Source: a virus
Taxonomy: Duplodnaviria > Heunggongvirae > Uroviricota > Caudoviricetes
Length of the DNA: 64,000 nucleotides
IMG/VR virus record: IMGVR_UViG_3300028797_000098
Coordinates: 38,321 to 102,320 of that record
Strand: one strand, 5' to 3'
Both the position numbers and the translations under genes were made by a program. This document shows, piece after piece, positions 7,121-36,358 of this stretch. The first letter of the stretch is position 1. Each line of letters starts with the position of its first letter. The notes under the pieces were generated by a model that saw nothing but the letters and a program-made list of their open reading frames with translations, did no database searches and was not told the DNA's origin.

Positions 7121-7132
7121 CGAAATTTTTAT

Positions 7133-7215: not shown

Positions 7216-7226
7216 CTATTCTTTAT

Positions 7227-7299
7227 TCCACCTTAGCTCAGTAGGTAGAGCGGGCGACTGTTAATCGCCTGGTCCCACGTTCGAGTCGTGGAGGTGGAG
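7227..7299 (+). tRNA. tRNA-Asn(GTT)
   Basis: Acceptor TCCACCT/AGGTGGA. Anticodon loop ctGTTaa. Confidence 0.7.
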
Positions 7300-7306
7300 C
7301 TAATAT

Positions 7307-7382
7307 TGCCGATTAGCCAAGCGGTAAGGCGCCGCGCTCTGAACGCGGGATTCTTTCGGTGGTTCGATCCCATCATCGGCAA
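7307..7382 (+). tRNA. tRNA-Gln(CTG)
   Basis: U1:A72. Anticodon loop ctCTGaa. Unusually long 9-nt variable region. Confidence 0.5.
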
Positions 7383-7393
7383 CTAAATTTTAT

Positions 7394-7464
7394 GCACCTA
7401 TGTTGTAGTGGTAGCAAACGACCTTGCCATGGTTGAAGCTCCGGATCGTACCCGGATAGGTGCT
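7394..7464 (+). tRNA. tRNA-Gly(GCC)
   Basis: Perfect acceptor GCACCTA/TAGGTGC. Anticodon loop ttGCCat. Confidence 0.7.
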
Positions 7465-7468
7465 CTAT

Positions 7469-7553
7469 CTCGTCGTGGGGGAATTTGGTAGACCCGCCAG
7501 CTTGAGGGGTTGGTGTTGAAATACACGTGGTGGTTCGAGACCACTCGACGAGA
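7469..7553 (+). tRNA. tRNA-Leu(GAG), class II
   Basis: Anticodon loop ttGAGgg. Long variable arm. Confidence 0.6.
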
Positions 7554-7566
7554 CTAACTTTAACAA

Positions 7567-7651
7567 CGCCCAGTGATGGAATTGGGTAGACAATGCGGAC
7601 TTAAAATCCGCAGCGAGTATTCGCGTGCCGGTTCGATGCCGGTCTGGGCGA
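7567..7651 (+). tRNA. tRNA-Leu(TAA), class II
   Basis: Perfect acceptor CGCCCAG/CTGGGCG. Anticodon loop ctTAAaa. Variable-arm stem GCGA/TCGC. Confidence 0.6.
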
Positions 7652-7725
7652 CTACAAGGGACAATGAATATGAAACGAAAATACAAACGATTATGATGGT
7701 GACGACTGCCAATTCAGTCGTGTCG

Positions 7726-7798
7726 GCTCCATTAACTCAGAAGATAGAGTACCGCCCTTTTAAGGCGGGAGTCGAGATGGCGGAATTCTCATGGAGCA
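7726..7798 (+). tRNA. tRNA-Lys(TTT)
   Basis: Perfect acceptor GCTCCAT/ATGGAGC. Anticodon loop ctTTTaa. Non-canonical T-loop GGCGGAA. Confidence 0.5.
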
Positions 7799-7805
7799 CT
7801 ATAAT

Positions 7806-7876
7806 GCACCTATGGTGTAGCGGTAACACGGCAGTCTTCCAAACTGCACTCGCCAGTTCGATTCTGACTAGGTGCT
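7806..7876 (+). tRNA. tRNA-Gly(TCC)
   Basis: Same acceptor as tRNA-Gly(GCC). Anticodon loop ctTCCaa. Confidence 0.65.
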
Positions 7877-7885
7877 TTATTATAC

Positions 7886-7967
7886 CGATCTGTGGCGGAA
7901 AGCATACGCAACGCACTCAAAATGCGTCGTCCGAAAGGAATTGTGGGTTCGTGTCCCACCAGATCGA
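7886..7967 (+). tRNA. tRNA-Leu(CAA), class II
   Basis: Perfect acceptor CGATCTG/CAGATCG. Anticodon loop ctCAAaa. Long variable arm. Confidence 0.6.
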
Positions 7968-7971
7968 CTAT

Positions 7972-8056
7972 CGGCATGTGGCGTAACTGGTAGCCGCGCT
8001 GCGTTCAGGGCGCAGTGTACATTTGTACGTGATGGGTTCGAATCCCTCTGTGCCGA
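7972..8056 (+). tRNA. tRNA-Leu(CAG), class II
   Basis: Anticodon loop ttCAGgg. Variable-arm hairpin GTACA/TGTAC. Weak T-stem. Confidence 0.5.
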
Positions 8057-8061
8057 CTTAT

Positions 8062-8133
8062 GGCCCCTTAGACCAGCGGTTAAGTCACAGGATTCTCATT
8101 CCTGGCACCCGAGTTCGAGCCTCGGAGGGGCTA
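8062..8133 (+). tRNA. tRNA-Glu(CTC)
   Basis: Anticodon loop ttCTCat. T-arm CCGAG-TTCGAGC-CTCGG. Confidence 0.6.
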
Positions 8134-8137
8134 CTAT

Positions 8138-8210
8138 TGGGCCGTGGTGCAATTGGTAGCACGCAAGATTTTGAGTCTTGATGTTGTTGGTTCAAGTCCA
8201 GCCAGCTCAA
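8138..8210 (+). tRNA. tRNA-Gln(TTG)
   Basis: U1:A72. Anticodon arm CAAGA-ttTTGag-TCTTG. Confidence 0.6.
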
Positions 8211-8213
8211 TTC

Positions 8214-8296
8214 CCCGAGGTGGCGGAATGGTAGACGCGCCTGCCTTAGGAGCAGGTGCCCGGAAGGGCGTGCAGGTTCGAGTCCTGTCCTCGGGA
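8214..8296 (+). tRNA. tRNA-Leu(TAG), class II
   Basis: Perfect acceptor CCCGAGG/CCTCGGG. Anticodon loop ctTAGga. Long variable arm. Confidence 0.6.
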
Positions 8297-8305
8297 TAAT
8301 GATAT

Positions 8306-8380
8306 GCGCTCTTAGCCAAGCCTGGTCTAAGGCAAGTGGTTGCAACCCACTGATCGGCGGTCCGAATCCGTCAGAGCGCT
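8306..8380 (+). tRNA. tRNA-Cys(GCA)
   Basis: Perfect acceptor GCGCTCT/AGAGCGC. Anticodon loop ttGCAac. Confidence 0.65.
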
Positions 8381-8394
8381 CGAAAGATTTTTAT

Positions 8395-8467
8395 GGGGCT
8401 GTAGCTCAGTTGGTAGAGCGGCAGGTTGAAGCCCTGCGCGTCGGAGGTTCGACTCCTCCCGGTCCCA
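8395..8467 (+). tRNA. tRNA-Phe(GAA)
   Basis: Canonical GTAGCTCAGTTGGTAGAGC D-arm. Anticodon loop ttGAAgc. Confidence 0.7.
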
Positions 8468-8473
8468 CTATTT

Positions 8474-8561
8474 GGAAATGTCCCATAATTGGTTATTGGC
8501 CCTCCTTGGAAAGGAGCGTGGTGGTGAAAGCTGCATGAAGGTTCGAGTCCTCCCATTTCCG
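8474..8561 (+). tRNA. tRNA-Ser(GGA), class II
   Basis: Perfect acceptor GGAAATG/CATTTCC. Anticodon loop ttGGAaa. Long variable arm. Confidence 0.55.
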
Positions 8562-8568
8562 CGAATTT

Positions 8569-8655
8569 GGAAGCGTAGACCTAATTGGTAAGGCCCCCGG
8601 CCCGAACCCGGTGGTGAGGAAGTTCCTCATGTAGGTTCAAGTCCTGCCGCTTCCG
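8569..8655 (+). tRNA. tRNA-Ser(CGA), class II
   Basis: Perfect acceptor GGAAGCG/CGCTTCC. Long variable arm. Anticodon reading CGA is tentative. Confidence 0.45.
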
Positions 8656-8659
8656 CTAT

Positions 8660-8743
8660 GGAAGCGCACGAGATTGGCGACTCAAGCGGACTTGAAATCC
8701 GTGGTTCCGCAAGGGCTTGGGGGTTCGACTCCCTCCGCTTCCG
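8660..8743 (+). tRNA. tRNA-Ser(TGA), class II
   Basis: Same acceptor as the previous tRNA. Anticodon loop ctTGAaa as in E. coli tRNA-Ser. Confidence 0.55.
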
Positions 8744-8752
8744 CGAAAGTAT

Positions 8753-8825
8753 TCCGACATAGCTCAATTGGTAGAGCAGTTCATTCGTAATGAACCGGTT
8801 GCTCGTTCGACCCGAGCTGTCGGAG
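8753..8825 (+). tRNA. tRNA-Thr(CGT)
   Basis: Perfect acceptor TCCGACA/TGTCGGA. Anticodon loop ttCGTaa. Confidence 0.65.
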
Positions 8826-8829
8826 CTAT

Positions 8830-8918
8830 GGAGAGGTAGCCTAATTGGTAAGGCAGGGGCTTGCTAAGCCCCCGTGGCCCTCAAAAGCTGCTTGCAGGTT
8901 CGAACCCTGTCCTCTCCT
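8830..8918 (+). tRNA. tRNA-Ser(GCT), class II
   Basis: Perfect acceptor GGAGAGG/CCTCTCC. Anticodon loop ttGCTaa. Long variable arm. Confidence 0.55.
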
Positions 8919-8924
8919 CTACAT

Positions 8925-8998
8925 GGTGTCAGTAGCTCAATCGGTGGAGCCCTGGTTTGTGGAACCAGCTGTTGCAAGTTCAAGCCTTGTCTGATACC
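8925..8998 (+). tRNA. tRNA-His(GTG) with encoded G-1
   Basis: Extra 5' G opposite discriminator C. Anticodon loop ttGTGga. Confidence 0.65.
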
Positions 8999-9046
8999 CT
9001 AAGTCATCTGAAATGTCGCGGATTTATTCAAGCAAAAGGATACAAC

Positions 9047-9376
9047 ATGATTACGGTAGCACAGATCAACGAATTGCGCAAGGCGACCCAGGTGAGCATG
9101 CTTCTATGTAAGCAGGCCCTGGAAGCGACCGGTGGCGATTTCGATGCCGCCAAGGAATGGCTCAGGGGCCAGGGCGGCGAGGTCGCCGGTGGCCCTTCCG
9201 AGTTCGGCGTCACCCTTTTCGCCGATGGCGCCGTCAATCAGCATGGTGTCACCGATGTCTTCACCTATTCCGACGGACATTCCACCGTGGACATCCGCGG
9301 TTATAGCGGTACGACCCCTTCTACCGTATGGGCCGATTTCAGGCACCAGCTCGTATTGAGACCGGCCAAGGCCTAG
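9047..9376 (+). CDS. EF-Ts N-terminal (UBA-like) domain protein
   Basis: AAAGGA SD then ATG. MITVAQINELRKATQVSMLLCKQALEATGGDFDAAKEWLRGQG resembles the EF-Tu-binding N-terminus of EF-Ts. The remainder is unrelated. Confidence 0.5.
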   Translation: MITVAQINELRKATQVSMLLCKQALEATGGDFDAAKEWLRGQGGEVAGGPSEFGVTLFADGAVNQHGVTDVFTYSDGHSTVDIRGYSGTTPSTVWADFRHQLVLRPAKA

Positions 9377-9383
9377 TCTTTCA

Positions 9384-9459
9384 GCCGGCGTAGCTCAATG
9401 GACTTCAGAGCACTCGACTTCTAATCGACAGGTTGCCAGTTCGACCCTGGCCGTCGGCA
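9384..9459 (+). tRNA. tRNA-Arg(TCT)
   Basis: Anticodon loop ctTCTaa. T-arm GCCAG-TTCGACC-CTGGC. Followed by TTTTTT. Confidence 0.6.
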
Positions 9460-9557: not shown

Positions 9558-9788
9558 ATGAAGAAGAACGCTGTTGCTTCCGCCACGAAGACTGTTGCAG
9601 ACAAGGAATCTCAGGCAACTATCAAGAAGCTCACTGCTGAAAATGCAAAGCTCACGAAGTCCCTCAAGTCCGCTGTCGCCAAGGCTGACAAGGCTGCTTC
9701 CGCATCTGCCGCTAAGCTTGCAAAGGCTAACGACAAGATTGCAAAGTTGCAGGAAACTGTCGCAGCTCTCAAGGGCAAGAAGAAGTAA
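9558..9788 (+). CDS. small Lys/Ala-rich coiled-coil (histone-H1-like) protein
   Basis: AAAGGATTGAAAA then ATG. 76 aa, about 45% Ala+Lys. Confidence 0.5.
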   Translation: MKKNAVASATKTVADKESQATIKKLTAENAKLTKSLKSAVAKADKAASASAAKLAKANDKIAKLQETVAALKGKKK

Positions 9789-9828
9789 TTCAAACCACAT
9801 ACCCTCCTTTGTGGTAGGCAACCGGCAT

Positions 9829-9862
9829 CATGAGGGCCGGTTGTCATTTTTTATTCGTATTG
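9829..9862 (+). terminator. rho-independent terminator
   Basis: CAACCGGC-atcatgaggg-CCGGTTG followed by TCATTTTTT. Confidence 0.6.
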
Positions 9863-9870
9863 CTATATTC
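9859..9870 (+). promoter_or_regulatory. promoter element ATTGCTATATTC
   Basis: Ends 5 nt before the ATG at 9876. Confidence 0.45.
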
Positions 9871-9875
9871 GGTGT

Positions 9876-10547
9876 ATGGAACAAGGAACAAGACTTTACA
9901 TCAATATTACCAACCGCTGCAATACGGACTGCCCGTTTTGCTGCATGTACTCCGGAACGGGAAATACTATCGACATGGATTTCGATGTGTTCCGTCGCAT
10001 CATAAATGAATGCCATGGCGACTTCGAGATTCAGTTTGAGGGCGGTGAACCCTTGATCCACAAGAATTTCTACCTATTCCTCGAATATGCCATCTCGACT
10101 GGCCGTTGCAAGAAGGTGAATATCCTGACGAACGGCATCGTGCTCGGGAAACACCTGCCTCGCCTGGTAAGTGTGTACAAGTGGTATGACATTCCCTTTG
10201 AAATCAAGGTATCGGTGAACTACTGGCTTATCAGGAAGCATGAAAACCATATCAAGCTGATTGCCGACTATGTGTTCGCCACCGAATACATGCCGAACTT
10301 CAATATTGTCCTGAATACCCGCAAGCGGCATAACGATGAGTGGATTGACGAGGAAATCAAGAATGCCGGGATGGAGGCCATTAACCACTCATTTTACCTT
10401 CAGAGTTATGGTAAGATGACTGGAAGCGACTATGATGGGGTGAAGATTGTCCAGAACATTGAAAACTGGCAGATTTACTCTGTAGATGGGCTGTGTTTCC
10501 ATCAGGACCTGGTTGCCCGTTCCGAACATGAGAGGAATCTATCGTGA
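9876..10547 (+). CDS. radical SAM protein, paralog 1 (MoaA/PqqE-like core)
   Basis: CNTDCPFCC CxxxCxxC motif, FEGGEPLIH, ILTNG. Confidence 0.7.
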   Translation: MEQGTRLYINITNRCNTDCPFCCMYSGTGNTIDMDFDVFRRIINECHGDFEIQFEGGEPLIHKNFYLFLEYAISTGRCKKVNILTNGIVLGKHLPRLVSVYKWYDIPFEIKVSVNYWLIRKHENHIKLIADYVFATEYMPNFNIVLNTRKRHNDEWIDEEIKNAGMEAINHSFYLQSYGKMTGSDYDGVKIVQNIENWQIYSVDGLCFHQDLVARSEHERNLS

Positions 10548-11506
10548 ATACCATCAAGTTTGCTCCATACAATGACTTCGTGACCGAACAGCACGATGTC
10601 GAGCATGCCTCGGTGGACACCGTTAAGGTGGGTGAAACTGAGTACAGGTTCTACAACCCCTGCAACCTGAACGTGTTCATCACGAATACGTGTCAGAACG
10701 CATGCGACTTCTGCATCAACAAGGGGCAGACGGACCAGTTCCGCATGGGTGACACTACATATTACGAGGACTTGGAGAAGGGTCTGGAAAAGCTGTCCGG
10801 TGTGAAGCTGGAAGCGACCATCACAGGCGGGGAACCTACTCTTCTCCCGAGACGCCTGGTCGAGACAGTTCGTATCCTGACCAAGCACGGGGTGCATGAA
10901 CGCACCGTGTCTACCACAGGCATCGGACTCCTTGAAAAGTACGAGGGGAAGACCGTCTTCCAGCACCTAATCGAGAATGGGTACACCCACAATATCTCGA
11001 TTAGCCGCATGGCCGAGGACGAATGGGAGAATGACCGCATCATGATGGGCGAGAAGTATTCGTCCAGGCAGCGTAACATTGGAAACGACGAGCTTAGGCG
11101 CCTCGCGACCATCGCCAAGGCGAATGGGGTTCAGTTACGCACCAGTACCAATTTACTTGCCGGACATGTTGATTCGTTCAAGAAGATGCTTCAATTTGTC
11201 GATTTTCAGTATGGTAATGGTATCGAAAGCTGTCTGTTCCGTGAGCTCGAAGGAAAGATACAGAAAATGTGGACGCCGATTGACTGGATTGCCGATACCG
11301 TGCGTATCATTAAGGATTTTAAATATGTCAAGACGGTGAACGGCATGTTCTATGACATAGAACAGTATCTGTACACTTCGCAGGCAACTGGGATGGAGTA
11401 CATTGTCAAGGTTTACAAGAACCATGTGGTCGATGCCGACATCATTGGTTCGCTTTCATTTAATCACGGTGTCATCCGAAAAGGATTTCATGGAGAAGAA
11501 ATATGA
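10544..11506 (+). CDS. radical SAM protein, paralog 2
   Basis: CQNACDFC, ITGGEPTLL, TTGIG. ATGA overlap with the upstream gene. Confidence 0.7.
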   Translation: MNTIKFAPYNDFVTEQHDVEHASVDTVKVGETEYRFYNPCNLNVFITNTCQNACDFCINKGQTDQFRMGDTTYYEDLEKGLEKLSGVKLEATITGGEPTLLPRRLVETVRILTKHGVHERTVSTTGIGLLEKYEGKTVFQHLIENGYTHNISISRMAEDEWENDRIMMGEKYSSRQRNIGNDELRRLATIAKANGVQLRTSTNLLAGHVDSFKKMLQFVDFQYGNGIESCLFRELEGKIQKMWTPIDWIADTVRIIKDFKYVKTVNGMFYDIEQYLYTSQATGMEYIVKVYKNHVVDADIIGSLSFNHGVIRKGFHGEEI

Positions 11507-12627
11507 TTAAAGTGGGTGCAGAAAGAGAAATTCGCTGGCAGCCTGAACTTAGAGAAGAACGCCAGAAGAATTACGATATTACACAATACGAGAGCATTCA
11601 TCACAAGTTTGCTACTGGTGATTTTGATGTCTACAAGAACTTCAACTTCAGTATCTTCATCAGCGACTACTGCAACGCGGACTGCAAGTTCTGTGTTGCA
11701 CAGCTCCGCTATGCCAACAAGGGGCTGATGTACCAGAAGGAGAAGCTGCCGGATAACCTGTGGCTGACCCGCTGCCGTGAAGTTCTTGAAATGATCCGTC
11801 CCCTCAACCCGAGCATTTCCATTACGGGCGGTGAACCGACTATGTCCAAGAAGCTCATTCCGGTTCTTGAAATGGTGAACGAGCTTGGTTTCCGCAAGCG
11901 CACCATCACGACCAACGGTTCGCACCTCTTTGACAAGGTGGGCAACAAGATGATTATTGACCATCTTATTGATAACGGATGGAATCACTTGAACATTTCC
12001 CGCCCGGCAATCACCGACGAGACTGCGAAACGCCTCATGCGCTTCAATAACGAGGAAGGTTTCTGTTCCAATGAAATGATGCGTGACATCATCGACATTA
12101 CGAACCATTCCGACATGAAACACCGCATTTCCTGCCTCCTCTTGAAGGAGGAAGTGAACTCCGTTGAAAAGATGAAGGAGTATTTGGACACCTATATCGA
12201 CATGGGCGCCAACAATTTCATCTTCCGCGAGCTCATGGACTACGACACGACCGCAATCAACCTGGAAAAGACCAAGTATTGTGTGGACAACAAGGTCAAG
12301 CTGAACGATATCTGGGCCAAGATTGACAATTACCCTGAATTCGAGAAGTACCTGAACATCCTCGGCTACTATTACTATGTGGAAATCTACAAGTACCGTG
12401 GCGCGACGGTCGCCTCCGAGGGCGCTAACATGGTCCAGCAGGGTCTCGAAGTGAAGAAGCACCCGAACCGTGTCTACGAGGCCGTGTTCCATCCGAATGG
12501 AAACCTCTGCGCATCCTGGATTGACAAGGAACGCATCCTTGACCCGTATTACATTGAGCATAAGATCGTCAAACGCCGTTTTGGCGATACTGCTAACTCG
12601 GATGCCAACCTCAAAGTGGGGAAATAG
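11503..12627 (+). CDS. radical SAM protein, paralog 3
   Basis: CNADCKFC, ITGGEPTM, TTNGSHL. Clearly paralogous to 10544-11506. Confidence 0.7.
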   Translation: MIKVGAEREIRWQPELREERQKNYDITQYESIHHKFATGDFDVYKNFNFSIFISDYCNADCKFCVAQLRYANKGLMYQKEKLPDNLWLTRCREVLEMIRPLNPSISITGGEPTMSKKLIPVLEMVNELGFRKRTITTNGSHLFDKVGNKMIIDHLIDNGWNHLNISRPAITDETAKRLMRFNNEEGFCSNEMMRDIIDITNHSDMKHRISCLLLKEEVNSVEKMKEYLDTYIDMGANNFIFRELMDYDTTAINLEKTKYCVDNKVKLNDIWAKIDNYPEFEKYLNILGYYYYVEIYKYRGATVASEGANMVQQGLEVKKHPNRVYEAVFHPNGNLCASWIDKERILDPYYIEHKIVKRRFGDTANSDANLKVGK

Positions 12628-12628
12628 C

Positions 12629-13348
12629 ATGAAAATCGGTATCATTTGTGGAAATATCGGCTCTGGAAAGAGCAGTGTGGCCGAAGAACTCAGGAAGATG
12701 GGTTACCCGGTCATCAACACGGACGACCTGATGAAGGTTATCTACAAGAGCAACCCTAGCGTGTACGGCACTGTCACCTCCATCTGGGGCCAGGATTCAA
12801 TCGACATGTTCGGTTCCCTGTCCCAGGAAGTGCGCGACCTCGCCTTGAAGGACGAGACCGTATATGATTTCCTCATGAACCTTGTCCAGTACCCGCTGCG
12901 TTCTGCGCTTGGGAAGATATTCTGCAATTTCACCTTTGACCGGGCGTATAACGACAAGACGATCTTCATCGAGAGCGCCGTCATGTGCAAGTGGATGTAC
13001 GAATGGGTCAACCCAGCGCGTACTATCGACCATGTATTCCGCATCACCGTGCCGAATACCGACGAGCGCCTTTACCGCGTGGTGAACCGCTATGCCCGCC
13101 GCAATCGAATCGAGACGGAATGCACCGGTTTCAGTGTGCTTCCTGATGAGGAATACAAGAAGAACAAGCTGCTGCTGGCCGATTTCAGGAAGATGGTCGC
13201 TCTTACGGATGACATGCAGACTAACCTGTATAACAAGTGGCTTGGTTCCAACGATCCGCATTTCCCGGAACCTATCGTGCTTGTGAACGAGGGACGCGAA
13301 GACGTGAAGCGGATTGCCAATCGTATTGTTGAAATTGTTTCAAAGTAA
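12629..13348 (+). CDS. P-loop kinase, dephospho-CoA kinase (CoaE)-like
   Basis: MKIGIICGNIGSGKSSVAEELRKMGYPVINTDDL matches the CoaE Walker A and VIDAD context. Starts 1 nt after the upstream stop. Confidence 0.55.
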   Translation: MKIGIICGNIGSGKSSVAEELRKMGYPVINTDDLMKVIYKSNPSVYGTVTSIWGQDSIDMFGSLSQEVRDLALKDETVYDFLMNLVQYPLRSALGKIFCNFTFDRAYNDKTIFIESAVMCKWMYEWVNPARTIDHVFRITVPNTDERLYRVVNRYARRNRIETECTGFSVLPDEEYKKNKLLLADFRKMVALTDDMQTNLYNKWLGSNDPHFPEPIVLVNEGREDVKRIANRIVEIVSK

Positions 13349-13367
13349 ACGTTTTTTAACAATTCAA

Positions 13368-13400
13368 TGGCACTGCTATTTTTCAAAGTAGTGCCATTTT
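13368..13400 (+). terminator. hairpin terminator
   Basis: AATGGCACTGCT-attttt-caaAGTAGTGCCATT followed by TTTT. Confidence 0.5.
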
Positions 13401-13411
13401 TGCTATATTTT
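13397..13411 (+). promoter_or_regulatory. promoter element TTTTGCTATATTTT
   Basis: 6 nt upstream of the ATG at 13417. Confidence 0.5.
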
Positions 13412-14181: not shown

Positions 14182-14929
14182 GGAAGAAGAAAAGAAGAAA
14201 ATCGATGACTTGTTTGCTCCTCATGACTTAGACCTTGAAGGATTTTCCGATGCAGTAAAGGCGAGATTCGAAGAAGCGACCTGCCGTACCGATAACCAGA
14301 ATGAGTACATGCTTTTCCCCGATGGGTGTGAATTGGGCATGATTGGAACTATGGTGAACGAACATGGTATTGAAGTTCCGGTCTATGAACGTGGGCTGTC
14401 AATCAGGTCAAAAATGAAAAGCTATGGCCCTGATTGGGCGAAAGAGATGGGTGTATATACCGAAGAGCAGCTTTCTGACCCCGAATACATGGAAACTGAG
14501 CTGTTTGCCGCTGCCGAGGAAGATTTTGAATATAATACCGTCAGGTCCCTCCCATATCAGCATGAGCATGCCCCGGTAATCATGGAAGTCCTGCATGACA
14601 TCGATGAGCGCGGCGATTCTAGTCGCTGGGATATGCCAATCGTTGGTAAATTGGACAAGCGTTGGGACAGTGCGTTCATTGGGACGATTGAAAATTCTGA
14701 TTATGCTCCCGTTGCAGTATATGAATTTGGACTGTTAGTCAAGGCCATGATGAGCGAAAACGACGTAGATGCTGATTTCGGCAAGGAACTTACGAAAAAG
14801 TATATTGCCGAAGGTATTCACGGCGACAAGCCCGTCATCCTTTACGGTTTCAAGGTAGATGCCGACCGTTGGGATGCTCTCAGGAAGGACATAAACGACG
14901 AAATGATGGAGGCTTTCTTCAATGCCTAG
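14174..14929 (+). CDS. hypothetical acidic protein
   Basis: Asp/Glu-rich ORF. Start may be 14162 or 14174. Confidence 0.45.
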   Translation: MDKEEEKKKIDDLFAPHDLDLEGFSDAVKARFEEATCRTDNQNEYMLFPDGCELGMIGTMVNEHGIEVPVYERGLSIRSKMKSYGPDWAKEMGVYTEEQLSDPEYMETELFAAAEEDFEYNTVRSLPYQHEHAPVIMEVLHDIDERGDSSRWDMPIVGKLDKRWDSAFIGTIENSDYAPVAVYEFGLLVKAMMSENDVDADFGKELTKKYIAEGIHGDKPVILYGFKVDADRWDALRKDINDEMMEAFFNA

Positions 14930-15500
14930 ATACGATAAGCCGGAATACGAGGGAGATTCCCGTCCGGAAACCCAGAAGCATATTGACCTAGTGAATGAAA
15001 ATGGCAAGAAGTTCTGTGACAAGTTCCTTGAACGTCTTAAGAATCACGATGCCTCCAAGCTAGTGGAGCCTGAACATAAATATTTTGACAAGGGCACCCC
15101 TAATTTGAAGACTAGTACCTATGGCGAAAAGTCTTATGACGATGCCAAGTCGAAGATAAAGCCGGGCCTTGACCATCACTATGCCGAGAATGATCATCAC
15201 CCCGAGCATTTTGGGGAGCAGGGCATATCTGGAATGAATCTGTACCAGTTGCTTGAGATGTGGATTGACTGGACAGCGGCTGTGAAGCGTCATGCCGACG
15301 GCAATATCTTCAATAGCCTTATGTACAACAAGGACAGGCCGGAATTCCACATGGATGACCAGGTGTTCAACATCCTGATGAATACTGCCACCGAGGATTT
15401 TCCGGAGCAGATGGATTCCGCGAATGAAAAATTCCAGAATTACATCAACGGAATGTTGAAAGAGGGTGACGATGTGGGAACTGATACTGGAGATAATTGA
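14922..15500 (+). CDS. hypothetical protein
   Basis: 192-aa ORF. ATGCCTAG overlap with the upstream gene. Confidence 0.45.
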   Translation: MPRYDKPEYEGDSRPETQKHIDLVNENGKKFCDKFLERLKNHDASKLVEPEHKYFDKGTPNLKTSTYGEKSYDDAKSKIKPGLDHHYAENDHHPEHFGEQGISGMNLYQLLEMWIDWTAAVKRHADGNIFNSLMYNKDRPEFHMDDQVFNILMNTATEDFPEQMDSANEKFQNYINGMLKEGDDVGTDTGDN

Positions 15501-15654: not shown

Positions 15655-15972
15655 ATGAGAGAATTCTGCAACTGCCCCTGTTGCCGGCACAGTGCGGGGG
15701 AACTTACTGACCGGGAGTATGCCTGGTACCTGAAAGGGTGTATTGAGATGGCCGCTTCAATTCCGAAAGAAATAATTGAAAAATGGAAATCGGAAAGCGC
15801 AGCCAAGGTTGAAAGCGATTTTGAGTGTGACTTATGGACCGAGGACTCAGGAAACCGTATCATACTGAAAGAACTTATTGAGCACATGAAAAGGGAAGGG
15901 CAACTGGTCGACCCGGCGTTCCTTCATCCGGAAGAATATCGTTTTCCAGAGGAAAAGAAAGATGGAAAATAG
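15655..15972 (+). CDS. hypothetical Cys-rich protein
   Basis: Begins MREFCNCPCCRH. Confidence 0.4.
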   Translation: MREFCNCPCCRHSAGELTDREYAWYLKGCIEMAASIPKEIIEKWKSESAAKVESDFECDLWTEDSGNRIILKELIEHMKREGQLVDPAFLHPEEYRFPEEKKDGK

Positions 15973-18762: not shown

Positions 18763-19160
18763 TCGTGGCAAAACCTACATGGACAGAAATTAGTGAGTTC
18801 AAGGACTGGATGGTCGAGCGCGGTTATGAAACCGACCGTGACCGCACCCGTTTCAAGAAGGGAAAGGACGGGATTGCCTTGGAATTCTGGATTGGCGAGT
18901 GTGCCAACGGTTCATTCAAGTGCCTCAATGCGCAGGTTCAACTGAATTTCGTTGACACATGGTTTCATACTGCCGGCATATTCCGTACCGGGGCGTTCAT
19001 GCCGTGCAAGACACTCTCGCATGAGTATGTGCTCATGTGCGAACTCCAGCACCGCAAGATTGAACTGGAAACCGAATCCTTCTTCGCCAAGGCAAATAAC
19101 CTGATTGCCGAAACGACCGATGAAATCAAGAAAATTAACCGCGGAGCACAGAATGCCTAA
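18732..19160 (+). CDS. hypothetical protein
   Basis: 142-aa ORF that overlaps both neighbours. Confidence 0.4.
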   Translation: MGQINEQDVVIVAKPTWTEISEFKDWMVERGYETDRDRTRFKKGKDGIALEFWIGECANGSFKCLNAQVQLNFVDTWFHTAGIFRTGAFMPCKTLSHEYVLMCELQHRKIELETESFFAKANNLIAETTDEIKKINRGAQNA

Positions 19161-19992
19161 CGACAACAGAAAGTACAACATCGGCATCTTCGAGAACACG
19201 ATGGGCAAGATCAACGATGACCCTATGCTTGGGGATATCATCAAGAATTCCATCTTGAACCAGGTGTTCCACCTGAAACCGGTGGACATCAAGTCCATCG
19301 CCCCGATTTACGACGAGGATTGCCCGGTTACGGTCTCCCGCGACCGTTCGATTGACAGCGCGTTGAGGTGGAAGAAGGCCATTCCCGGTGGAAAGGTGGC
19401 CGTCCTCAACTTTGCGAGCGCGACCCGTCCCGGTGGTGGTGTGGTTACTGGCTCCTCTGCCCAGGAAGAGTGCATCTGCCGTTGCACCACGCTCTACCCG
19501 TGCCTTACGACCCAGGAAGCGGATATCCGTTTCTATGACCCACACCGCAAGAACGTGGGCCCGTTGCACAACGACGACATCATCTATACGCCGAATGTCG
19601 CAATTCTCCGTAACGATGATTACGACTGGCTCCCTGAGCCGGTGTTCATCGACGTGATTACCTGCGCCGCGCCCAACCTGCGCGAGAAGAACATTTCCAA
19701 GTACAACCAGGAGCGCGAACCGGCACCGGATATTTCTCCCGAGGAATTGAAGGCACTCCATGTGTCCCGTGCCCGTCAGATTTTGAACTCCGCGGCGCAG
19801 CAGTTTGCGGATGTGGTCATCCTCGGCGCGTTCGGGTGCGGTGCCTTCCGTAATGACCCGGAAGTTGTCGCGGCTGCCTACAAGGAAGTCGTGCCGGAAT
19901 TCCGTAAGCGTTTCAAGGCAATCGAGTTTGCCGTATATTGCCGTGGAGCGGACACCGAAAACTTTGAAGCGTTCCAGAAGGTGTTCGGATGA
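19153..19992 (+). CDS. macro-domain-like protein, TIGR02452/DUF2263 (microbial PARG-like)
   Basis: VLNFASATRPGGGVVTGSSAQEECICRCTTLYPCL and FGCGAFRNDP resemble DUF2263. Confidence 0.55.
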   Translation: MPNDNRKYNIGIFENTMGKINDDPMLGDIIKNSILNQVFHLKPVDIKSIAPIYDEDCPVTVSRDRSIDSALRWKKAIPGGKVAVLNFASATRPGGGVVTGSSAQEECICRCTTLYPCLTTQEADIRFYDPHRKNVGPLHNDDIIYTPNVAILRNDDYDWLPEPVFIDVITCAAPNLREKNISKYNQEREPAPDISPEELKALHVSRARQILNSAAQQFADVVILGAFGCGAFRNDPEVVAAAYKEVVPEFRKRFKAIEFAVYCRGADTENFEAFQKVFG

Positions 19993-26938: not shown

Positions 26939-28018
26939 ATGGAACACAAGATTGCAGTTTATGGCGGCGCATTTGACCCGCTTACCGTTGCCCATGAGGC
27001 AATTATTCAGTATCTTTTGGAAAACTACCCGGAAGTCCATGTCTATGTGACCGACAATGATGAAAAACAGTACAATGCATCATTCCAGGACCGTTATGGC
27101 ATGTTGATTGCCCGGTTTCCGAAACTGAACATCCATAAGCAGTCGGTTCGTACCTTCGATAATCTCGAAACAGTGTATGGAACATATGTTTCCGGATCCG
27201 AGAACAAGAATCCGGACATTGACCTCATTATCGGCATGGATGAGCTTGAAGCCCTTCTGGCCGGCAAGTGGAAAGATTCTGACAAGCTCATCGACAAGTA
27301 CAGCATCCGTGTATTCAACCGTGGAAAAAACTTCAATTTCCATACGGAACTTGGTACCCGAGGCGATATCAACCCTATTTTCGTAAATGTTCCCGATGTG
27401 TCGTCCACAGCTGTCCGTAGTGACATGCTCATGAACCCCATGTATGGGGGAATGTCGGTTTCGCCGCAAGTTCTTGGGTATATTTTCCAGCATGGATTAT
27501 ATCACCAGGATAATCCGCTAATACATTGGAACACTGAACATCAGGAACTTGCCAACTACAAGCCAGGCGATTATCCAAAACCTTCGGTTACGGTGACTTC
27601 CGTGGTTATCAACAGCATTGGCGAACCTACCATTGGTCGAGAGGACCAGGTGCTTCTAGTGCGCCGCAAGCGCTGGCCGTTCGCTAACTACTGGTGTCTC
27701 CCTGGTGGCTTTACCAATCCGCATGAACCCATCGAGAATTGCAGCTGTCGTGAACTCCATGAGGAAACGGGGCTTGTACTCTACCCTAATCAGGTTCACC
27801 AATTGAAGGTGTATATCCCGGAAGACCCTCGCGAGAATGTTCCTGGACACTGGGCGTATGACGTGGGTGTCTATGTTCGTGGGATTTTCGGGGCAGTCAA
27901 GGGTGACGACGATGCTGCCGAGGCAGCATGGTTCCCGTTGAGCGTAGCCCGCAAGGCTCACTTGGCGTTCCACCATAACCAAATCCTTGAAGATTACATC
28001 AAGACGATCGGGGGATAG
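26939..28018 (+). CDS. nadM: bifunctional NMN adenylyltransferase / Nudix (ADP-ribose pyrophosphatase), NadM-Nudix type
   Basis: N-terminal AVYGGAFDPLTVAHEAII (H/TxGH nucleotidyltransferase motif). C-terminal Nudix box LPGGFTNPHEPIENCSCRELHEETG. Confidence 0.7.
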   Translation: MEHKIAVYGGAFDPLTVAHEAIIQYLLENYPEVHVYVTDNDEKQYNASFQDRYGMLIARFPKLNIHKQSVRTFDNLETVYGTYVSGSENKNPDIDLIIGMDELEALLAGKWKDSDKLIDKYSIRVFNRGKNFNFHTELGTRGDINPIFVNVPDVSSTAVRSDMLMNPMYGGMSVSPQVLGYIFQHGLYHQDNPLIHWNTEHQELANYKPGDYPKPSVTVTSVVINSIGEPTIGREDQVLLVRRKRWPFANYWCLPGGFTNPHEPIENCSCRELHEETGLVLYPNQVHQLKVYIPEDPRENVPGHWAYDVGVYVRGIFGAVKGDDDAAEAAWFPLSVARKAHLAFHHNQILEDYIKTIGG

Positions 28019-34963: not shown

Positions 34964-36358
34964 ATGGCACAGATTCTTACAGAAAAGAAGAAACTTAGCT
35001 TGGCAATGCCGAACAGAAAGGGTCGTCGCAAGCCGGATGCAAGGCTCATTACGCCGGCTCTTCCGAAACAGTACAAGAAAAAGGACCCGAATAAATGGAT
35101 TATTCAACATTTGACTGCAACCGATTTATACAAGTACAGCATGGGCCAGTTGTACTTCCACAAGCACCGTAATGTACAGGCCCGCTGGGAGTTTAAACTC
35201 CGTTCCAAGGGTGTACGCCTTGATTACTTGCACGATGCAATCAATCGCGAACTCGACCACCTTTGCACCCTCCGCTATACGGATTGGGAACTTACTGGAA
35301 TTGGTAAAGTTGCACCGTGGATTGATGATGACTTCCTCCGTGAACTGAAACGCTTCCAGTTGCAGCGTGAATACATTCACTGCGAATATGATCCGGACGA
35401 TGAATGTGGGCTCAAAATCTGGGCAGAAGGCTCCCAGATGGATGTCTACTGGTTTGAAATCTACGTGTTGCAGATTGTGCAGCACCTCTACTTCGACGAC
35501 CTTGAAATCGACTGGGAAGCTTCCAAGCGTAACCTTGCCGAAGTAATCAAGAAGTGGAAGGAAGCATCCGAACGCGGCATCAAGTTTACCGTTTCTGACT
35601 TCGGTATCCGCCGTGGCGTATCCGACGAATGGAACGAATACATGGTGTCCACCCTCTTGAAGGAACTTCCGGGCGTGTTTGTGGGTACATCCAATGTGTA
35701 CCTCGCTATCAAGCTTGGTTGTAAGGCTATCGGCACTTTTGCGCATGAGCTTTACGCGGTCTACCAGGGCCTCGATGATGTAAAGCTCCGCAAGTGCCAG
35801 ACTCAGGTGTTTGAAGACTGGATGCACGAATTCGGCGGTGATCTCGGTATTGCCTTGTCCGATAACTTTGGCTTCAAGGCGTTCCTCGAAGATTTCGGTG
35901 CAGGCTCTCGTCGCGGCAAGCTCTATGCCAAGGTGTTCGATGGCTGCCGGCATGACTCCGGCAACCCGTACACTTGGGGCGAAATGCTCATTGCCCATTA
36001 CAAGAAGTTGAAGATTGACCCGGCCACCAAGGTTGGCTGTTGGAGCGACAGTCTCGATGTGGACAAGTCCATCGCCATCGCCGAGCACTTCAACCTCCGT
36101 ATCAAGATTGCCTTCGGCATCGGGACATTCCTCAGTGCTTCCATCGTGAAGTTCAAGGGCAATGCCGAGCGCAAGCCGCTTTCCATGGTCATGAAGGTTG
36201 TGAAGGTCAAGGCCCACAACGATGCACCGTGGGTTTGGGCTGTTAAACTGTCCGATTCCATCGGCAAGACCATGTGCCCCGACCAGGACCATGTGGAACT
36301 CGTAAAACGGACATTCAATTACAGCTCCATCGACGAGGTGCAGGAGGTTTGCCAGTGA
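34964..36358 (+). CDS. nadV: nicotinamide phosphoribosyltransferase (NAMPT/NadV)
   Basis: 464 aa. NAPRTase-family core resemblance (FGIRRGVS, GTSNVYLA...FAHELY). Partner of the NMNAT-Nudix gene, as in known phage NAD+ salvage pairs. Confidence 0.65.
   Translation: MAQILTEKKKLSLAMPNRKGRRKPDARLITPALPKQYKKKDPNKWIIQHLTATDLYKYSMGQLYFHKHRNVQARWEFKLRSKGVRLDYLHDAINRELDHLCTLRYTDWELTGIGKVAPWIDDDFLRELKRFQLQREYIHCEYDPDDECGLKIWAEGSQMDVYWFEIYVLQIVQHLYFDDLEIDWEASKRNLAEVIKKWKEASERGIKFTVSDFGIRRGVSDEWNEYMVSTLLKELPGVFVGTSNVYLAIKLGCKAIGTFAHELYAVYQGLDDVKLRKCQTQVFEDWMHEFGGDLGIALSDNFGFKAFLEDFGAGSRRGKLYAKVFDGCRHDSGNPYTWGEMLIAHYKKLKIDPATKVGCWSDSLDVDKSIAIAEHFNLRIKIAFGIGTFLSASIVKFKGNAERKPLSMVMKVVKVKAHNDAPWVWAVKLSDSIGKTMCPDQDHVELVKRTFNYSSIDEVQEVCQ

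Follow-up and report, generated by a model that had tools for sequence, protein, structure and literature searches.

A candidate radical-SAM nucleotide-tailoring module linked to NAD/ADP-ribose metabolism in a large gut or rumen phage

Closest described systems

Phages are known to carry NAD pathways of their own, namely NARP1 (Adps and Namat), NARP2 (NAMPT and NMNAT), NARP3 (PnuC and NadR) and the NAD clusters of gut jumbo phages, none of which includes a radical-SAM enzyme (bioRxiv 10.1101/2024.02.11.579819; PMC13464706; PMC11662467). The locus analysed here, an operon of three radical-SAM enzymes (rSAM1, rSAM2 and rSAM3) and a P-loop kinase in a phage DNA window of 64,000 nucleotides, resembles these compact phage-borne gene sets in that the module occurs with NAPRTase, NMNAT and NadE genes across this phage and two others (L004 and L148), and its bacterial counterparts lie in NAD salvage operons. 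It differs from them in containing radical-SAM enzymes, and its part in NAD supply is a predicted one. A literature search found no paper describing the radical-SAM module.

By profile, the closest sequence family is viperin/pVip (pVip E 8e-17), with which the module shares a nucleotide-modifying radical-SAM fold and a neighbouring kinase gene. However, the module scores only 53 against the viperin cut-off of 180, is found in NAD operons instead of defence islands, requires rSAM1 as a partner, and is here borne by a phage rather than aimed at one. MoaA, the GTP 3',8-cyclase, is also distinct: rSAM3 scores 44 against the TIGR02666 cut-off of 284, lacks both the C-terminal cysteine triad of a second [4Fe-4S] cluster and a MoaC partner, is set apart by a 45-aa extension at its N-terminus and a Tyr-rich beta domain (GYYYYVE) at its C-terminus, and is always paired with a second radical-SAM enzyme.

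CofG/CofH (F0 synthase) and MqnE/MqnC are two-component radical-SAM cofactor synthases. They likewise place two different radical-SAM enzymes side by side, sometimes fused, and consecutive action on one small-molecule scaffold would be shared, whereas their sequence relationship to the module extends only to the superfamily level.

Operon organisation, enzyme families and kinase partners

Positions 9876-13348 form one operon, in which rSAM1, rSAM2, rSAM3 and a CoaE-like kinase follow a single promoter between two intrinsic terminators:

9817..9852, + strand: intrinsic terminator ending the upstream 76-aa gene and insulating the operon (12-bp interrupted stem and T-run)
9841..9869, + strand: sigma-70-type promoter with extended -10 (TTGTCA-17-TG-n-TATATT; 10/12 matches with TG in the promoter scan)
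9876..10547, + strand: rSAM1, 223 aa, core-only radical-SAM enzyme with CNTDCPFCC and GGEP (Pfam Radical_SAM 45 bits)
10544..11506, + strand: rSAM2, 320 aa, GTG start, with CQNACDFC and GGEP; divergent rSAM3 paralog
11503..12627, + strand: rSAM3, 374 aa, with CNADCKFC, GGEPT, FRKRTITTNGS and GYYYYVE; MoaA/viperin-like
12629..13348, + strand: CoaE-family P-loop kinase, 239 aa, with GNIGSGKSS (Pfam CoaE 36 bits)
13366..13404, + strand: operon-ending intrinsic terminator (12-bp stem and T-run)

The two flanking terminator-promoter cassettes reported in the preliminary description proved to be real, as both hairpins, each with a T-run, fold strongly: -18.8 kcal/mol for 9817-9845 (z -4.68; 0/200 shuffles equal) and -17.0 kcal/mol for 13366-13398 (z -4.97), the downstream promoter overlapping the operon-ending terminator. 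The operon promoter is one copy of a phage-wide motif, TTGCTATAT, which occurs nine times on the + strand, every time ahead of a gene. ATGA coupling, proposed for the whole trio, applies to the rSAM2/rSAM3 junction, while rSAM1 and rSAM2 are joined by a GTGA overlap instead. A homolog shares the MNTIKF N-terminus of rSAM2, in support of the GTG start. As originally stated, the kinase ATG lies one nucleotide after the rSAM3 stop, and its assignment to the CoaE type holds at a Pfam cut-off of 27.

All three enzymes exceed the Pfam Radical_SAM cut-off of 29.5 bits (rSAM1 45, rSAM2 37, rSAM3 42). The suggestion that they are mutual paralogs sharing CxxxCxxC, GGEP and TNG motifs survives in part: rSAM2 and rSAM3 are 28% identical over 215 aa (E 2e-26), whereas the alignments of rSAM1 with the other two (E 7e-5 and 6e-3) are confined to the cluster/GGEP core of ~90 aa, rSAM1 having just the N-terminal radical-SAM core in common with them, and rSAM2 reads STTG in place of TNG. 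None of the curated models for MoaA, viperin, QueE and SPASM reaches its cut-off, all remaining far below, which bears out the view that the trio represents an uncharacterised multi-step radical-SAM pathway other than MoaA/MoaC, QueE or canonical viperin.

The AF2 model of rSAM1 (pLDDT 93), a protein with 361 homologs, matches a generic radical-SAM core, its best fold matches including the peptide-modifying EpeE/YydG and SkfB, while rSAM3 matches MoaA best and viperin next. Searches for a second (auxiliary) Fe-S cluster in rSAM3 and for SPASM/twitch cysteine clusters in all three enzymes were negative; the conserved cysteines are those of CX3CX2C plus one to three isolated ones, and CX3CX2C is retained in 23 of 25 rSAM2-type sequences. 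The most conserved component of the operon is rSAM3, whose many invariant basic residues (R69, R131-K132-R133, R167, R180, R208, R242 and K256) are expected for a polyphosphate-bearing nucleotide substrate.

The enzyme family is widespread, also on bacterial chromosomes, and the distribution of the module is patchy, shaped by horizontal transfer and inclusive of many phages. Genes for rSAM1 and an rSAM3-type enzyme are adjacent in ~140 loci, nearly all of the ~150 related ones, and protein P0265 is a fusion of the two (residues 30-249 match rSAM1, E 8e-28; residues 309-614 match rSAM3, E 6e-52). This pair, fused in at least one protein, is the conserved core. In contrast, rSAM2 is limited to three-gene versions, two-gene loci of phages and bacteria lacking it; it is a lineage-specific duplicate of rSAM3.

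The best PDB match of the operon kinase is the dephospho-CoA kinase 2if2 (E 3e-9), and no homolog of it was found beside the module in other loci. Four unrelated P-loop kinase families lie directly 3' of the module, according to lineage:

this phage: CoaE-like
L004: Aldolase_II+AAA_33
11 loci: 188-aa P-loop kinase
~30 loci: AAA_28, the family to which Pfam assigns the ribosylnicotinamide kinase domain of NadR

A kinase function therefore recurs with the module but is supplied by non-orthologous families. The neighbourhood search recommended earlier for the trio plus kinase recovered the radical-SAM genes, in bacterial NAD salvage/NrtR operons, and not the CoaE-like kinase. The L004 kinase carries a fused class II aldolase-like domain and could instead serve the disposal of 5-deoxyribose, the radical-SAM by-product.

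NAD genes around the module in bacteria and phages

In genomes of Bacilli, Erysipelotrichaceae, candidate-phylum Dojkabacteria and Lachnospiraceae, the module is located inside NAD operons among NadD, NadE, PncA, PncB, PncC, NadK, Prs, Nudix and NrtR genes, neighbours that Pfam confirmed. The first three arrangements below come from Bacilli, Erysipelotrichaceae and Dojkabacteria genomes:

order 1: NadD-rSAM1-rSAM2-rSAM3-kinase-PncC-NadK-NrtR
order 2: trio-PncA-PncB-Nudix-NadE-NadD-NadK-NrtR
order 3: trio-kinase-PncB-PncA-NadE-NadD-NrtR
Lachnospiraceae: NADAR-NrtR-trio
Pirellulaceae genome: Nudix-Tpt1-ADP-ribosylglycohydrolase-rSAM1-rSAM3-AAA_28
Woesearchaeote: NAD-kinase-like gene, then the rSAM1/rSAM3 pair and AAA_28
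Ruminococcus: module convergent with an NrtR-PncA-PncB operon

Tpt1 adjoins the rSAM1/rSAM3 pair in L083 and is no more than 10 kb away from it in L098. Within the clade of at least 46% identity, 15 of 33 species-level loci have NAD/ADP-ribose genes no more than 10 kb from the module, against a chance expectation of ~8% per locus that is a rough estimate and not a computed value; roughly one in two close-clade loci, among them the Lachnospiraceae SulP-trio operon and the Ruminococcus fusion type, lacks any NAD gene within that distance.

Upstream of rSAM1 in seven species loci lies a 21-bp palindrome, TTATTAnTAnAATGnTAATAA, which overlaps the -10 box and also precedes PncA, PncB, Prs and NadD in those same loci. 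It yields 45 sites versus 8-22 in shuffles, with the top-scoring sites nearly all in rSAM1 or NAD-gene promoters. The palindrome fits the description of the NrtR operator as a 21-bp palindrome (PMC2330246) and, from its co-location with nrtR genes, is predicted to be that operator; such a shared operator points to a common regulon of the module and the NAD genes. No operator was found upstream of the trio in the Ruminococcus fusion type or in the Lachnospiraceae operon in which translational coupling ties the trio to a SulP/STAS anion transporter and not to NAD genes. The TylF-like methyltransferase or MoxR/VWA-type neighbours of distant-clade loci suggest other or broader roles for the module, and the known salvage route in module-bearing NAD operons is already complete without it.

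The window itself encodes NAD genes 6-22 kb distant from the operon, as well as an NAD-dependent ligase:

19105..19992, + strand: microbial-type poly(ADP-ribose) glycohydrolase, PARG (Pfam PARG_cat_microb 108 bits)
26939..28018, + strand: NMN/NaMN adenylyltransferase-Nudix fusion of the NadM-Nudix type (Pfam CTP_transf_like and NUDIX; NadD and NrtR/Nudix profiles match)
34964..36358, + strand: NAPRTase-family phosphoribosyltransferase (Pfam NAPRTase 195 bits, NAPRTase_N 75 bits)

NAPRTase, PncA, NMNAT and NadE surround the module in phage L004 (425 kb), and phage L148 has the order PncB-rSAM1-rSAM3-rSAM-NadE-x-NadD-Nudix, while most phage loci, including that of a 73-kb phage, hold the rSAM1/rSAM3 pair with no NAD neighbour.

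On balance, it is somewhat probable that the operon constitutes a new radical-SAM nucleotide-tailoring module of NAD/ADP-ribose metabolism in a large gut or rumen phage. Its core would be a two-enzyme system of rSAM1 and the MoaA/viperin-like rSAM3-type enzyme, with rSAM2 as a duplicated rSAM3 copy that would still be catalytic. Consecutive 5'-deoxyadenosyl-radical steps may take place on a phosphorylated compound akin to ADP-ribose or to a pyridine nucleotide, and the adjacent kinase would phosphorylate this substrate or the product; the CoaE family, to which the kinase of this phage belongs, acts on ADP-X compounds by phosphorylating their 3'-OH. What the module yields would then flow into the branch from NaMN/NMN to NAD that NAPRTase and NMNAT operate, in the direction of supply rather than recycling. 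If so, bacteria would gain from the module a further input to their NAD pool under NrtR control, and in the phage it would have an auxiliary or counter-defence role, preserving NAD during infection beside the NAPRTase, NMNAT-Nudix, PARG and NAD-dependent ligase that the phage itself encodes. Phages probably use the module to sustain NAD, a step that they appear to have borrowed. The original idea of a nucleotide or cofactor as the substrate class, with the kinase as a functional partner, is supported as probable.

Alternative explanations

A viperin-like role is unlikely but deserves consideration, in which the radical-SAM enzymes turn a standard, kinase-supplied NTP (cf. CMPK2/viperin) into a modified nucleotide serving as chain terminator, signal or enzyme inhibitor, for conflict in bacteria or for use by the phage against the host or competing phages. 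The adjacent kinase, as in kinase-associated pVips, the patchy, horizontally transferred distribution with many phage carriers, and some distant-clade loci with MoxR/VWA-type neighbours and NTase or SelO-like fusions are in line with this role. Besides the low viperin score, it is opposed by the constant need for a second, different radical-SAM enzyme, rSAM1, a need that viperins do not share, by PADLOC defence models, which matched none of the module's neighbours, and by the placement of close-clade genes in housekeeping NAD operons with a shared operator in reduced genomes (Dojkabacteria, Mollicutes-like Bacilli), which is not a defence-island context.

It is quite unlikely that the module performs a step in the biosynthesis of another cofactor or metabolite, such as a Moco-like compound or a sugar-nucleotide derivative, its NAD co-location then reflecting co-regulation or shared precursors (PRPP, ATP, SAM). 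The SulP/STAS coupling in Lachnospiraceae, Ham1 (a non-canonical NTP pyrophosphatase) after the kinase in two loci, and a methyltransferase that is fused to the module or adjoins it in myxobacteria and cyanobacteria would suit such a step. Nevertheless, neither the second cluster that defines MoaA nor MoaC is present, the operator shared with the NAD genes speaks for a single regulon, and the NAD link recurs independently in Firmicutes, Dojkabacteria, the Woesearchaeote, Planctomycetes and three phage lineages, with different NAD/ADP-ribose genes each time.

A nucleic-acid function, either tRNA/RNA modification or repair or hypermodification of phage DNA, is very improbable. It is suggested by the start of the operon 417 nt past the last tRNA of a 33-tRNA array, the CCA-adding enzyme and RlaP (RNA-repair genes) encoded by the phage, the RNA ligase gene that splits the trio in phage L005, and Tpt1 near the pair in L083 and L098. 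However, of the 21 other loci checked (mostly phage), only 3 have tRNA genes within 10 kb, and a Pfam search of the operon proteins revealed no TRAM, PUA, THUMP or DNA-binding domain. A Pfam scan of the operon's immediate neighbours found no DNA-modification partner (glycosyltransferase, hydroxymethylase, or DpdA/QueC type). The phage-specific DNA or tRNA modification considered in the preliminary description also conflicts with the same genes on bacterial chromosomes, where the orthologs occupy NAD operons instead of tRNA-modification or replication contexts.

RiPP-like maturation of the upstream Lys/Ala-rich 76-aa protein by the three enzymes, to which the small ORF immediately upstream and the EpeE/YydG and SkfB fold matches of rSAM1 had lent some appeal, is rejected as extremely improbable, since that gene is a separate transcription unit, driven by a promoter of its own and closed off from the operon by a strong terminator, has no homolog in the ~150 related loci outside this same phage, and is accompanied by no SPASM, twitch or RRE element. 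The 76-aa protein resembles a coiled coil (weak matches of the ZapB/SlyX type) and not a leader-core peptide, and its Ala+Lys content is 51%, not the ~45% given before.

Structure of the radical-SAM operon

An operon of three radical-SAM genes and a CoaE-like kinase gene was confirmed at 9876-13348 of the window. A protein was assigned to the radical SAM superfamily (PF04055) if it had a CX3CX2C cluster motif, a SAM-binding motif of the GGE type and more than 29.5 bits, the gathering cut-off, in Pfam; rSAM1, rSAM2 and rSAM3 all qualify.

Genes of the operon
9876-10547, + strand: rSAM1, 223 aa, Pfam Radical_SAM 45.3 bits, CNTDCPFC and GGEP
10544-11506, + strand: rSAM2, 320 aa, GTG start, 37.3 bits, CQNACDFC and GGEP
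11503-12627, + strand: rSAM3, 374 aa, 42.2 bits, CNADCKFC and GGEP
12629-13348, + strand: P-loop kinase, 239 aa, above the Pfam CoaE threshold

The rSAM1/rSAM2 junction is a GTGA overlap, the rSAM2/rSAM3 junction is an ATGA overlap, and a 1-nt gap separates rSAM3 from the kinase gene; the GTG start of rSAM2 is supported because a homolog opens with the same MNTIKF. Two hairpins with T-runs bracket the operon (computed folds of -18.8 and -17.0 kcal/mol, z about -5), which is preceded at 9841-9869 by a promoter-like site, TTGTCA-17-TATATT with a TG extension. This operon promoter is one copy of a phage motif, TTGCTATAT. Written as TTGCTATAT(T/A), the motif is an extended -10 with about nine copies in the window, mostly on the + strand and each before a gene.

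Copies of TTGCTATAT(T/A) from the motif scan
9507, 9860, 13400, 20798, 23072, 29814, 32442 and 42549, + strand
63055, - strand

GTTGCC or GTTTCC usually lies about 17 nt upstream of this motif, which often overlaps the 3' arm and T-run of a hairpin, leading to compact terminator-promoter cassettes between genes.

The three radical-SAM genes and the kinase gene were shown to make up a radical-SAM system that is transcribed as one unit and coupled in translation, with two core enzymes that work jointly. The gene order, packing and cassettes of the preliminary description thus stand, with three details corrected. ATGA overlaps had been given for the radical-SAM genes, and the first overlap is GTGA; the 76-aa protein upstream had been put at about 45% Ala+Lys, and its computed share is 51%. 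The three enzymes had been called paralogs, which holds for rSAM2 and rSAM3 (28% identity over 215 aa, E 2e-26) and not for rSAM1, whose similarity to the other two is a core match confined to about 90 residues around the cluster and GGEP motifs.

Known families, distribution and partner enzymes

Curated models (NCBIfam, PHROGs and PADLOC) gave only generic or sub-cut-off matches to the operon proteins, and a fold search with rSAM1 returned only generic radical-SAM cores. MoaA is a GTP 3',8-cyclase in which a second, C-terminal [4Fe-4S] cluster with three cysteines anchors GTP. The MoaA models TIGR02666/NF001199, which have a cut-off of 284 bits, gave rSAM1, rSAM2 and rSAM3 scores of 38.5, 27.2 and 44.3. 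No MoaA-type second cluster was seen when 24 rSAM3 homologs were aligned (mean column identity 59%), the only invariant cysteines beyond CX3CX2C being C211 and C260, 49 residues apart, and no auxiliary-cluster motif was found in rSAM1, whose extra cysteines are only C23 and the nearly invariant C78. MoaC, MoaB/MogA and MoaD/E partners were absent from the operon, the Pfam-scanned window ORFs and the scanned conserved neighbour families.

Viperin and pVip convert CTP, UTP or GTP to the 3'-deoxy-3',4'-didehydro nucleotide. The best viperin score was that of rSAM3, 53.3 bits against cut-offs of 180 (NF038283) and 450 (TIGR04278); the PADLOC pVip profile, from a library without a curated cut-off, gave it 59.6 bits. 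Viperin and pVip act as lone radical-SAM enzymes in defence islands, whereas the rSAM3-type core of the present module is nearly always paired with rSAM1 and has NAD metabolism genes as neighbours; PADLOC defence models matched none of the module neighbours, including those of MoxR, VWA and kinase type. For QueE, rSAM3 reached 21.9 bits with TIGR03963 (cut-off 260) and a PHROG QueE-like match of E 7e-4, and Que genes of the QueC/QueD/FolE type were found neither near the operon nor among the Pfam-scanned window ORFs. As for SPASM/twitch maturases, no Cys-rich C-terminus was present in the rSAM1/rSAM3 homologs, and all SPASM-family models scored far under their cut-offs.

By these tests the module lies outside the MoaA, viperin, QueE and SPASM families. 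The preliminary view that it belongs to no MoaA, QueE or viperin pathway was borne out (44 vs 284, 22 vs 260 and 53 vs 180 bits, partner genes not found), and the auxiliary-cluster cysteines that it had proposed to look for were not found in the rSAM1/rSAM3 alignments. MoaA and viperin resemble rSAM3 in fold; two-component radical-SAM synthases resemble the module in architecture, and phage NAD pathways do so in biology.

By sequence, the rSAM3 family forms a clade that is both compact and distinct. A search of proteins clustered at 90% identity gave 491 relatives for rSAM3 (50-94% identity, almost all unnamed) and 361 for rSAM1; an exhaustive rSAM3-type profile search of 1.84 billion representative proteins gave 98 clusters at E ≤ 1e-30 and 535 at ≤ 1e-10. 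A scan of one genome per species located the family in Lachnospiraceae, Ruminococcus, Erysipelotrichaceae, uncultured Bacilli, Mollicutes-like lineages and Muribaculaceae, in the candidate phylum Dojkabacteria, in Woesearchaeota, Nanoarchaeota, cyanobacteria, Obscuribacterales and Planctomycetes, and in Enhygromyxa and every Sorangium genome scanned. The viral scan yielded 58 module loci on contigs from a few kb to 440 kb; a single-protein query of viral contigs had found no match, and the alignment-based scan did succeed. A protein search of deposited phages found a single record, Dulem virus 40, a complete 73-kb phage genome carrying the module under the annotation 'molybdenum cofactor biosynthesis enzyme'. 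At the DNA level, the 4.1-kb region had no megablast match among 50,697 phage records; a plasmid search gave only a 22%-identity match.

The ORFs of the module loci were called, clustered and then profile-scanned. In almost all loci rSAM1 adjoins an rSAM3-type gene, the conserved partner across loci, and rSAM2 is a faster-evolving duplicate restricted to three-gene versions, with CX3CX2C kept in 23 of 25 rSAM2-type sequences. This adjacency, the restriction of rSAM2 and a natural rSAM1-rSAM3 fusion protein (P0265) indicate that the functional core is a two-enzyme radical-SAM system.

Several variants were observed. The rSAM2-type gene appears degenerate in L022 and L026 (uncultured Bacilli, Tenericutes), that of L022 being without CX3CX2C, and in both loci a Ham1-family non-canonical NTP pyrophosphatase gene follows the kinase gene. 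By eye, P0256 (1836 aa) joins an rSAM3-type domain to methyltransferase-like and SelO/AMPylase-like regions, and P0342 and P0370 (about 500 aa) join one to a C-terminal minimal-nucleotidyltransferase-like region. In Lachnospiraceae (L001 7209-13025; also L002, L003, L011 and L012) the trio is translationally coupled to an upstream gene for a 706-aa SulP/STAS anion transporter, and its third gene encodes a 658-aa fusion whose 340-aa N-terminal domain bears an invariant GGCPCT...C...C.H...C; in some Lachnospiraceae and Ruminococcus genomes it is the second copy that instead bears this Cys-rich domain. The domain had no Pfam match and no PDB profile match, and a homolog search gave two proteins; assignment as a DHH/DHHA1 phosphoesterase was rejected after hhalign against a neighbouring DHH protein gave 0.1% probability.

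Compared with dephospho-CoA kinase (CoaE), the operon kinase scored 36.1 bits with Pfam CoaE (cut-off 27) and 30.8 bits with NCBIfam TIGR00152 (cut-off 65.55), and only its residues 3-107 align with solved CoaE structures (2if2, E 3e-9); it is a predicted member of the CoaE-like fold family. The trio with a CoaE-like kinase, suggested earlier as a set to seek in other phages, does not recur: no homolog of this kinase was found adjoining the module in other loci, which carry unrelated kinases or none. A P-loop kinase of some type follows the module in many lineages: 11 loci have a 188-aa kinase, about 30 distant-clade loci have one of the AAA_28 family, and a 425-kb phage contig (L004) has an Aldolase_II-like/AAA_33 fusion. 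The ribosylnicotinamide kinase domain of NadR belongs to AAA_28 in Pfam; PDB sequence searches with the AAA_28 and 188-aa kinases were uninformative. Unrelated kinases have been recruited repeatedly, which argues for phosphorylation as part of the pathway; it is no universal part, since a kinase is missing from several operons and from most phages. Alternatively, the aldolase-kinase fusion of the L004 phage could handle the 5-deoxyribose by-product.

NAD operons and the probable NrtR regulon of bacterial orthologs

In the closest clade (46-60% identity to rSAM3) the module lies inside NAD operons, whose neighbour families were each confirmed by Pfam.

NAD operons containing the module
NadD-rSAM1-rSAM2-rSAM3-kinase-PncC-NadK-NrtR, often preceded by Prs
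rSAM1-rSAM2-rSAM3-PncA-PncB-Nudix-NadE-NadD-NadK-NrtR
rSAM1-rSAM2-rSAM3-kinase-PncB-PncA-NadE-NadD-NrtR, in Dojkabacteria

In a profile census, NAD/ADP-ribose genes were present no more than 10 kb from the module in 15 of the 33 species-level close-clade loci, in most cases several of them, lying on the same strand; the chance rate of about 8% per locus is a rough estimate of the analyst, not a computed value. Further arrangements are NADAR-NrtR-trio in Lachnospiraceae, Nudix-Tpt1-ADP-ribosylglycohydrolase-rSAM1-rSAM3-AAA_28 in a Pirellulaceae genome, and an NAD-kinase-like gene, the rSAM1-rSAM3 pair and AAA_28, in that order, in a Woesearchaeote. In Ruminococcus the module and an operon encoding NrtR, a HemN-like radical-SAM and Nudix fusion, PncA and PncB converge; with the fusion (636 aa, L009 12927-14837, - strand), another radical-SAM protein, unrelated to the first, is linked to NAD genes.

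Upstream of rSAM1 in seven species loci (L014, L015, L022, L029, L033, L036 and L048), the -10 box is covered by the 21-bp palindrome TTATTAnTAnAATGnTAATAA, often with a second copy about 50 nt downstream; in the same loci the palindrome also precedes PncA, PncB, Prs and NadD. A total of 45 sites were counted vs 8-22 in shuffled sequence, the best-scoring nearly all in the rSAM1, PncA, PncB, Prs and NadD promoters. The predicted NrtR operator of the Bacilli genomes (e.g. L015 and L047) is TTATTACTATAATGGTAATAA, and four of the seven loci (L015, L033, L036 and L048) have an nrtR gene in the retrieved sequence. The published NrtR operator is a 21-bp palindrome, and ADP-ribose is the published NrtR effector (PMC2330246). 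Because the palindrome is common to the rSAM1 and NAD gene promoters and has the published NrtR form, the module is considered to be co-regulated with NAD salvage, and NrtR is most likely the regulator of both. The bacterial orthologs were thereby shown to be members of NAD operons and of an NAD regulon. An operator common with NAD genes, together with NrtR in the genome, was found in the bacterial loci scanned for it; the window was searched with protein profiles, and an NrtR operator is not expected in the phage operon, which uses a phage promoter. No TGATAATATCA-type operator was found upstream of the Lachnospiraceae and Ruminococcus trios, and an Rfam riboswitch search of 7 bacterial loci at gathering thresholds gave no match.

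Four points count against a simple NAD reading. The NAD operons of the module already contain the whole classical salvage route; an NAD neighbour is missing from roughly half of the close-clade loci and from most of the phage loci; in the distant clade the neighbours are a TylF-like methyltransferase, which is fused in Sorangium, or genes of MoxR/VWA type; and the aldolase-kinase fusion of L004 could serve the 5-deoxyribose by-product instead. The distant-clade pair follows a conserved block of a MoxR-type AAA_3 ATPase and four proteins without a Pfam or PADLOC match in L055, L059, L061-L064 and L077 (Planctomycetota, Obscuribacterales, Polyangiaceae, Terriglobia, Burkholderiales and an unclassified proteobacterium), one of these four, of about 460 aa, always being encoded directly upstream of the pair. 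In a phage (L007 11052-13745) the gene for an 897-aa VWA-domain protein comes after the trio.

Proposed role and phage gene content

Two features of rSAM3, its MoaA/viperin-like fold and its invariant basic residues (R69, R167, R180, R208, R242, K256 and an RKR ahead of the TTNG strand), point to a di- or triphosphate nucleotide as the substrate, which the NAD-gene context narrows to an NAD-related nucleotide. Candidates would be a pyridine nucleotide, its riboside or an ADP-ribose derivative. A CoaE-type kinase, which normally phosphorylates the adenosine 3'-OH of an ADP-X compound, would suit such an ADP-X-like substrate. The module may build the pyridine ring, recycle an ADP-ribose product or make a modified NAD analogue; a role in supply or regeneration is favoured because NrtR regulons hold NAD supply genes, and the output would then feed NAPRTase, NMNAT and NadE.

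A link between the radical-SAM module and NAD/ADP-ribose metabolism is judged moderately probable. It is a tentative and rather unlikely proposal that rSAM1/rSAM3, with rSAM2 and the kinase as accessories, form a new NAD-metabolic branch and give phages a fourth way to restore NAD. Such a branch could be an oxygen-independent route for making or regenerating a pyridine nucleotide or its riboside from a common nucleotide or ADP-ribose, would be under NrtR control in bacteria, in a candidate-phylum bacterium and in DPANN-type archaea of reduced genome size, and would have been captured repeatedly by phages of many sizes as a counter-defence against NAD-depleting immunity. NAD depletion is among the commonest outcomes of bacterial anti-phage immunity, and to our knowledge the three phage NAD-restoring pathways so far found all reuse classical salvage enzymes. 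In the phage, the module may help to keep NAD available by analogy with NARP1-3, the phage NAD reconstitution pathways (bioRxiv 10.1101/2024.02.11.579819; PMC13464706). Full-text literature searches gave no paper that assigns a radical-SAM component to NAD metabolism, to NrtR regulons or to phage NAD pathways, and a survey of viral NAD/ADP-ribose systems mentions none (PMC9503650).

If true, the proposal would bring new enzymology to a pathway held to be fully mapped, and a function to a conserved unnamed family of several hundred clusters at 90% identity that spans Firmicutes, candidate-phylum bacteria, DPANN-type archaea, myxobacteria and cyanobacteria. The module occurs in dozens of phage lineages (the 58 viral loci of one scan), from the 73-kb phage to the 440-kb contigs, and the set is small and tractable, with two to three enzymes and a kinase, a short substrate list and a predicted operator.

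Some phages carry NAD genes beside the module. The 425-kb contig L004 has NAPRTase, PncA, NMNAT, NadE and a nucleoside deoxyribosyltransferase-like gene around the trio, and the 165-kb contig L148 has the island PncB-rSAM1-rSAM3-rSAM-NadE-x-NadD-Nudix.

Other genes of the window
133-1497: NAD-dependent DNA ligase, cut by the window start
5921-9459, + strand: array of 33 tRNA genes for 19 of 20 amino acids, no tRNA-Pro
9558-9788: 76-aa protein, 51% Ala+Lys, weak coiled-coil-type Pfam matches (ZapB, SlyX)
17527-18762: CCA-adding/PolyA_pol enzyme
19105-19992: microbial-type PARG (Pfam)
20808-22160: RlaP RNA-repair nucleotidyltransferase
26939-28018: NMNAT-Nudix fusion (Pfam and own profiles)
28485-29702: TnpB (OrfB_IS605/Cas12f-like)
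32710-32782: tRNA-Gly(ccc), a single further tRNA gene
34964-36358: NAPRTase-family enzyme (Pfam)

The defining enzymes of NARP1 (Adps and Namat), NARP2 (NAMPT and NMNAT) and NARP3 (PnuC and NadR) are absent from the operon itself; the NAPRTase-family and NMNAT-Nudix genes of the window form a NARP2-like pair separate from it. The NAD genes of the window match the 'NAD jumbo phage' gene content of gut phages, among whose NAD genes the radical-SAM genes of the module are not mentioned (PMC11662467). The ligase, CCA-adding enzyme, PARG, RlaP and TnpB together make up an RNA-repair and ADP-ribose toolkit of this phage.

The preliminary description had offered a novel nucleotide or cofactor pathway, a nucleic-acid modification or a RiPP-like modification of the 76-aa peptide; the first is supported, the other two are not, and the NAD link had been overlooked. 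A role in nucleic-acid modification could draw on the position of the operon, 417 nt downstream of the end of the tRNA array, which is considered incidental because only 3 of the 21 other loci checked, mostly phage, have tRNA genes at a distance of up to 10 kb. The RiPP reading is effectively excluded because the 76-aa gene is separately transcribed, with its own promoter and a strong terminator before the operon, and is not conserved with the module (no homolog in related loci outside copies of the same phage), SPASM-type cysteines also being absent.

The 76-aa protein has the look of a small, strongly expressed protein that would serve in structure or in coating nucleic acid. Within the tRNA array, an ORF at 8957-9376 between tRNA-His and tRNA-Arg encodes a UBA/EF-Ts N-terminal-like domain (Pfam EF-Ts_N, E 1e-5, sub-cut-off). 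After the operon, a run of small uncharacterised genes with its own promoter includes genes with DUF5662 (14922-15500, 113 bits) and DUF1653 (about 15962-16369).
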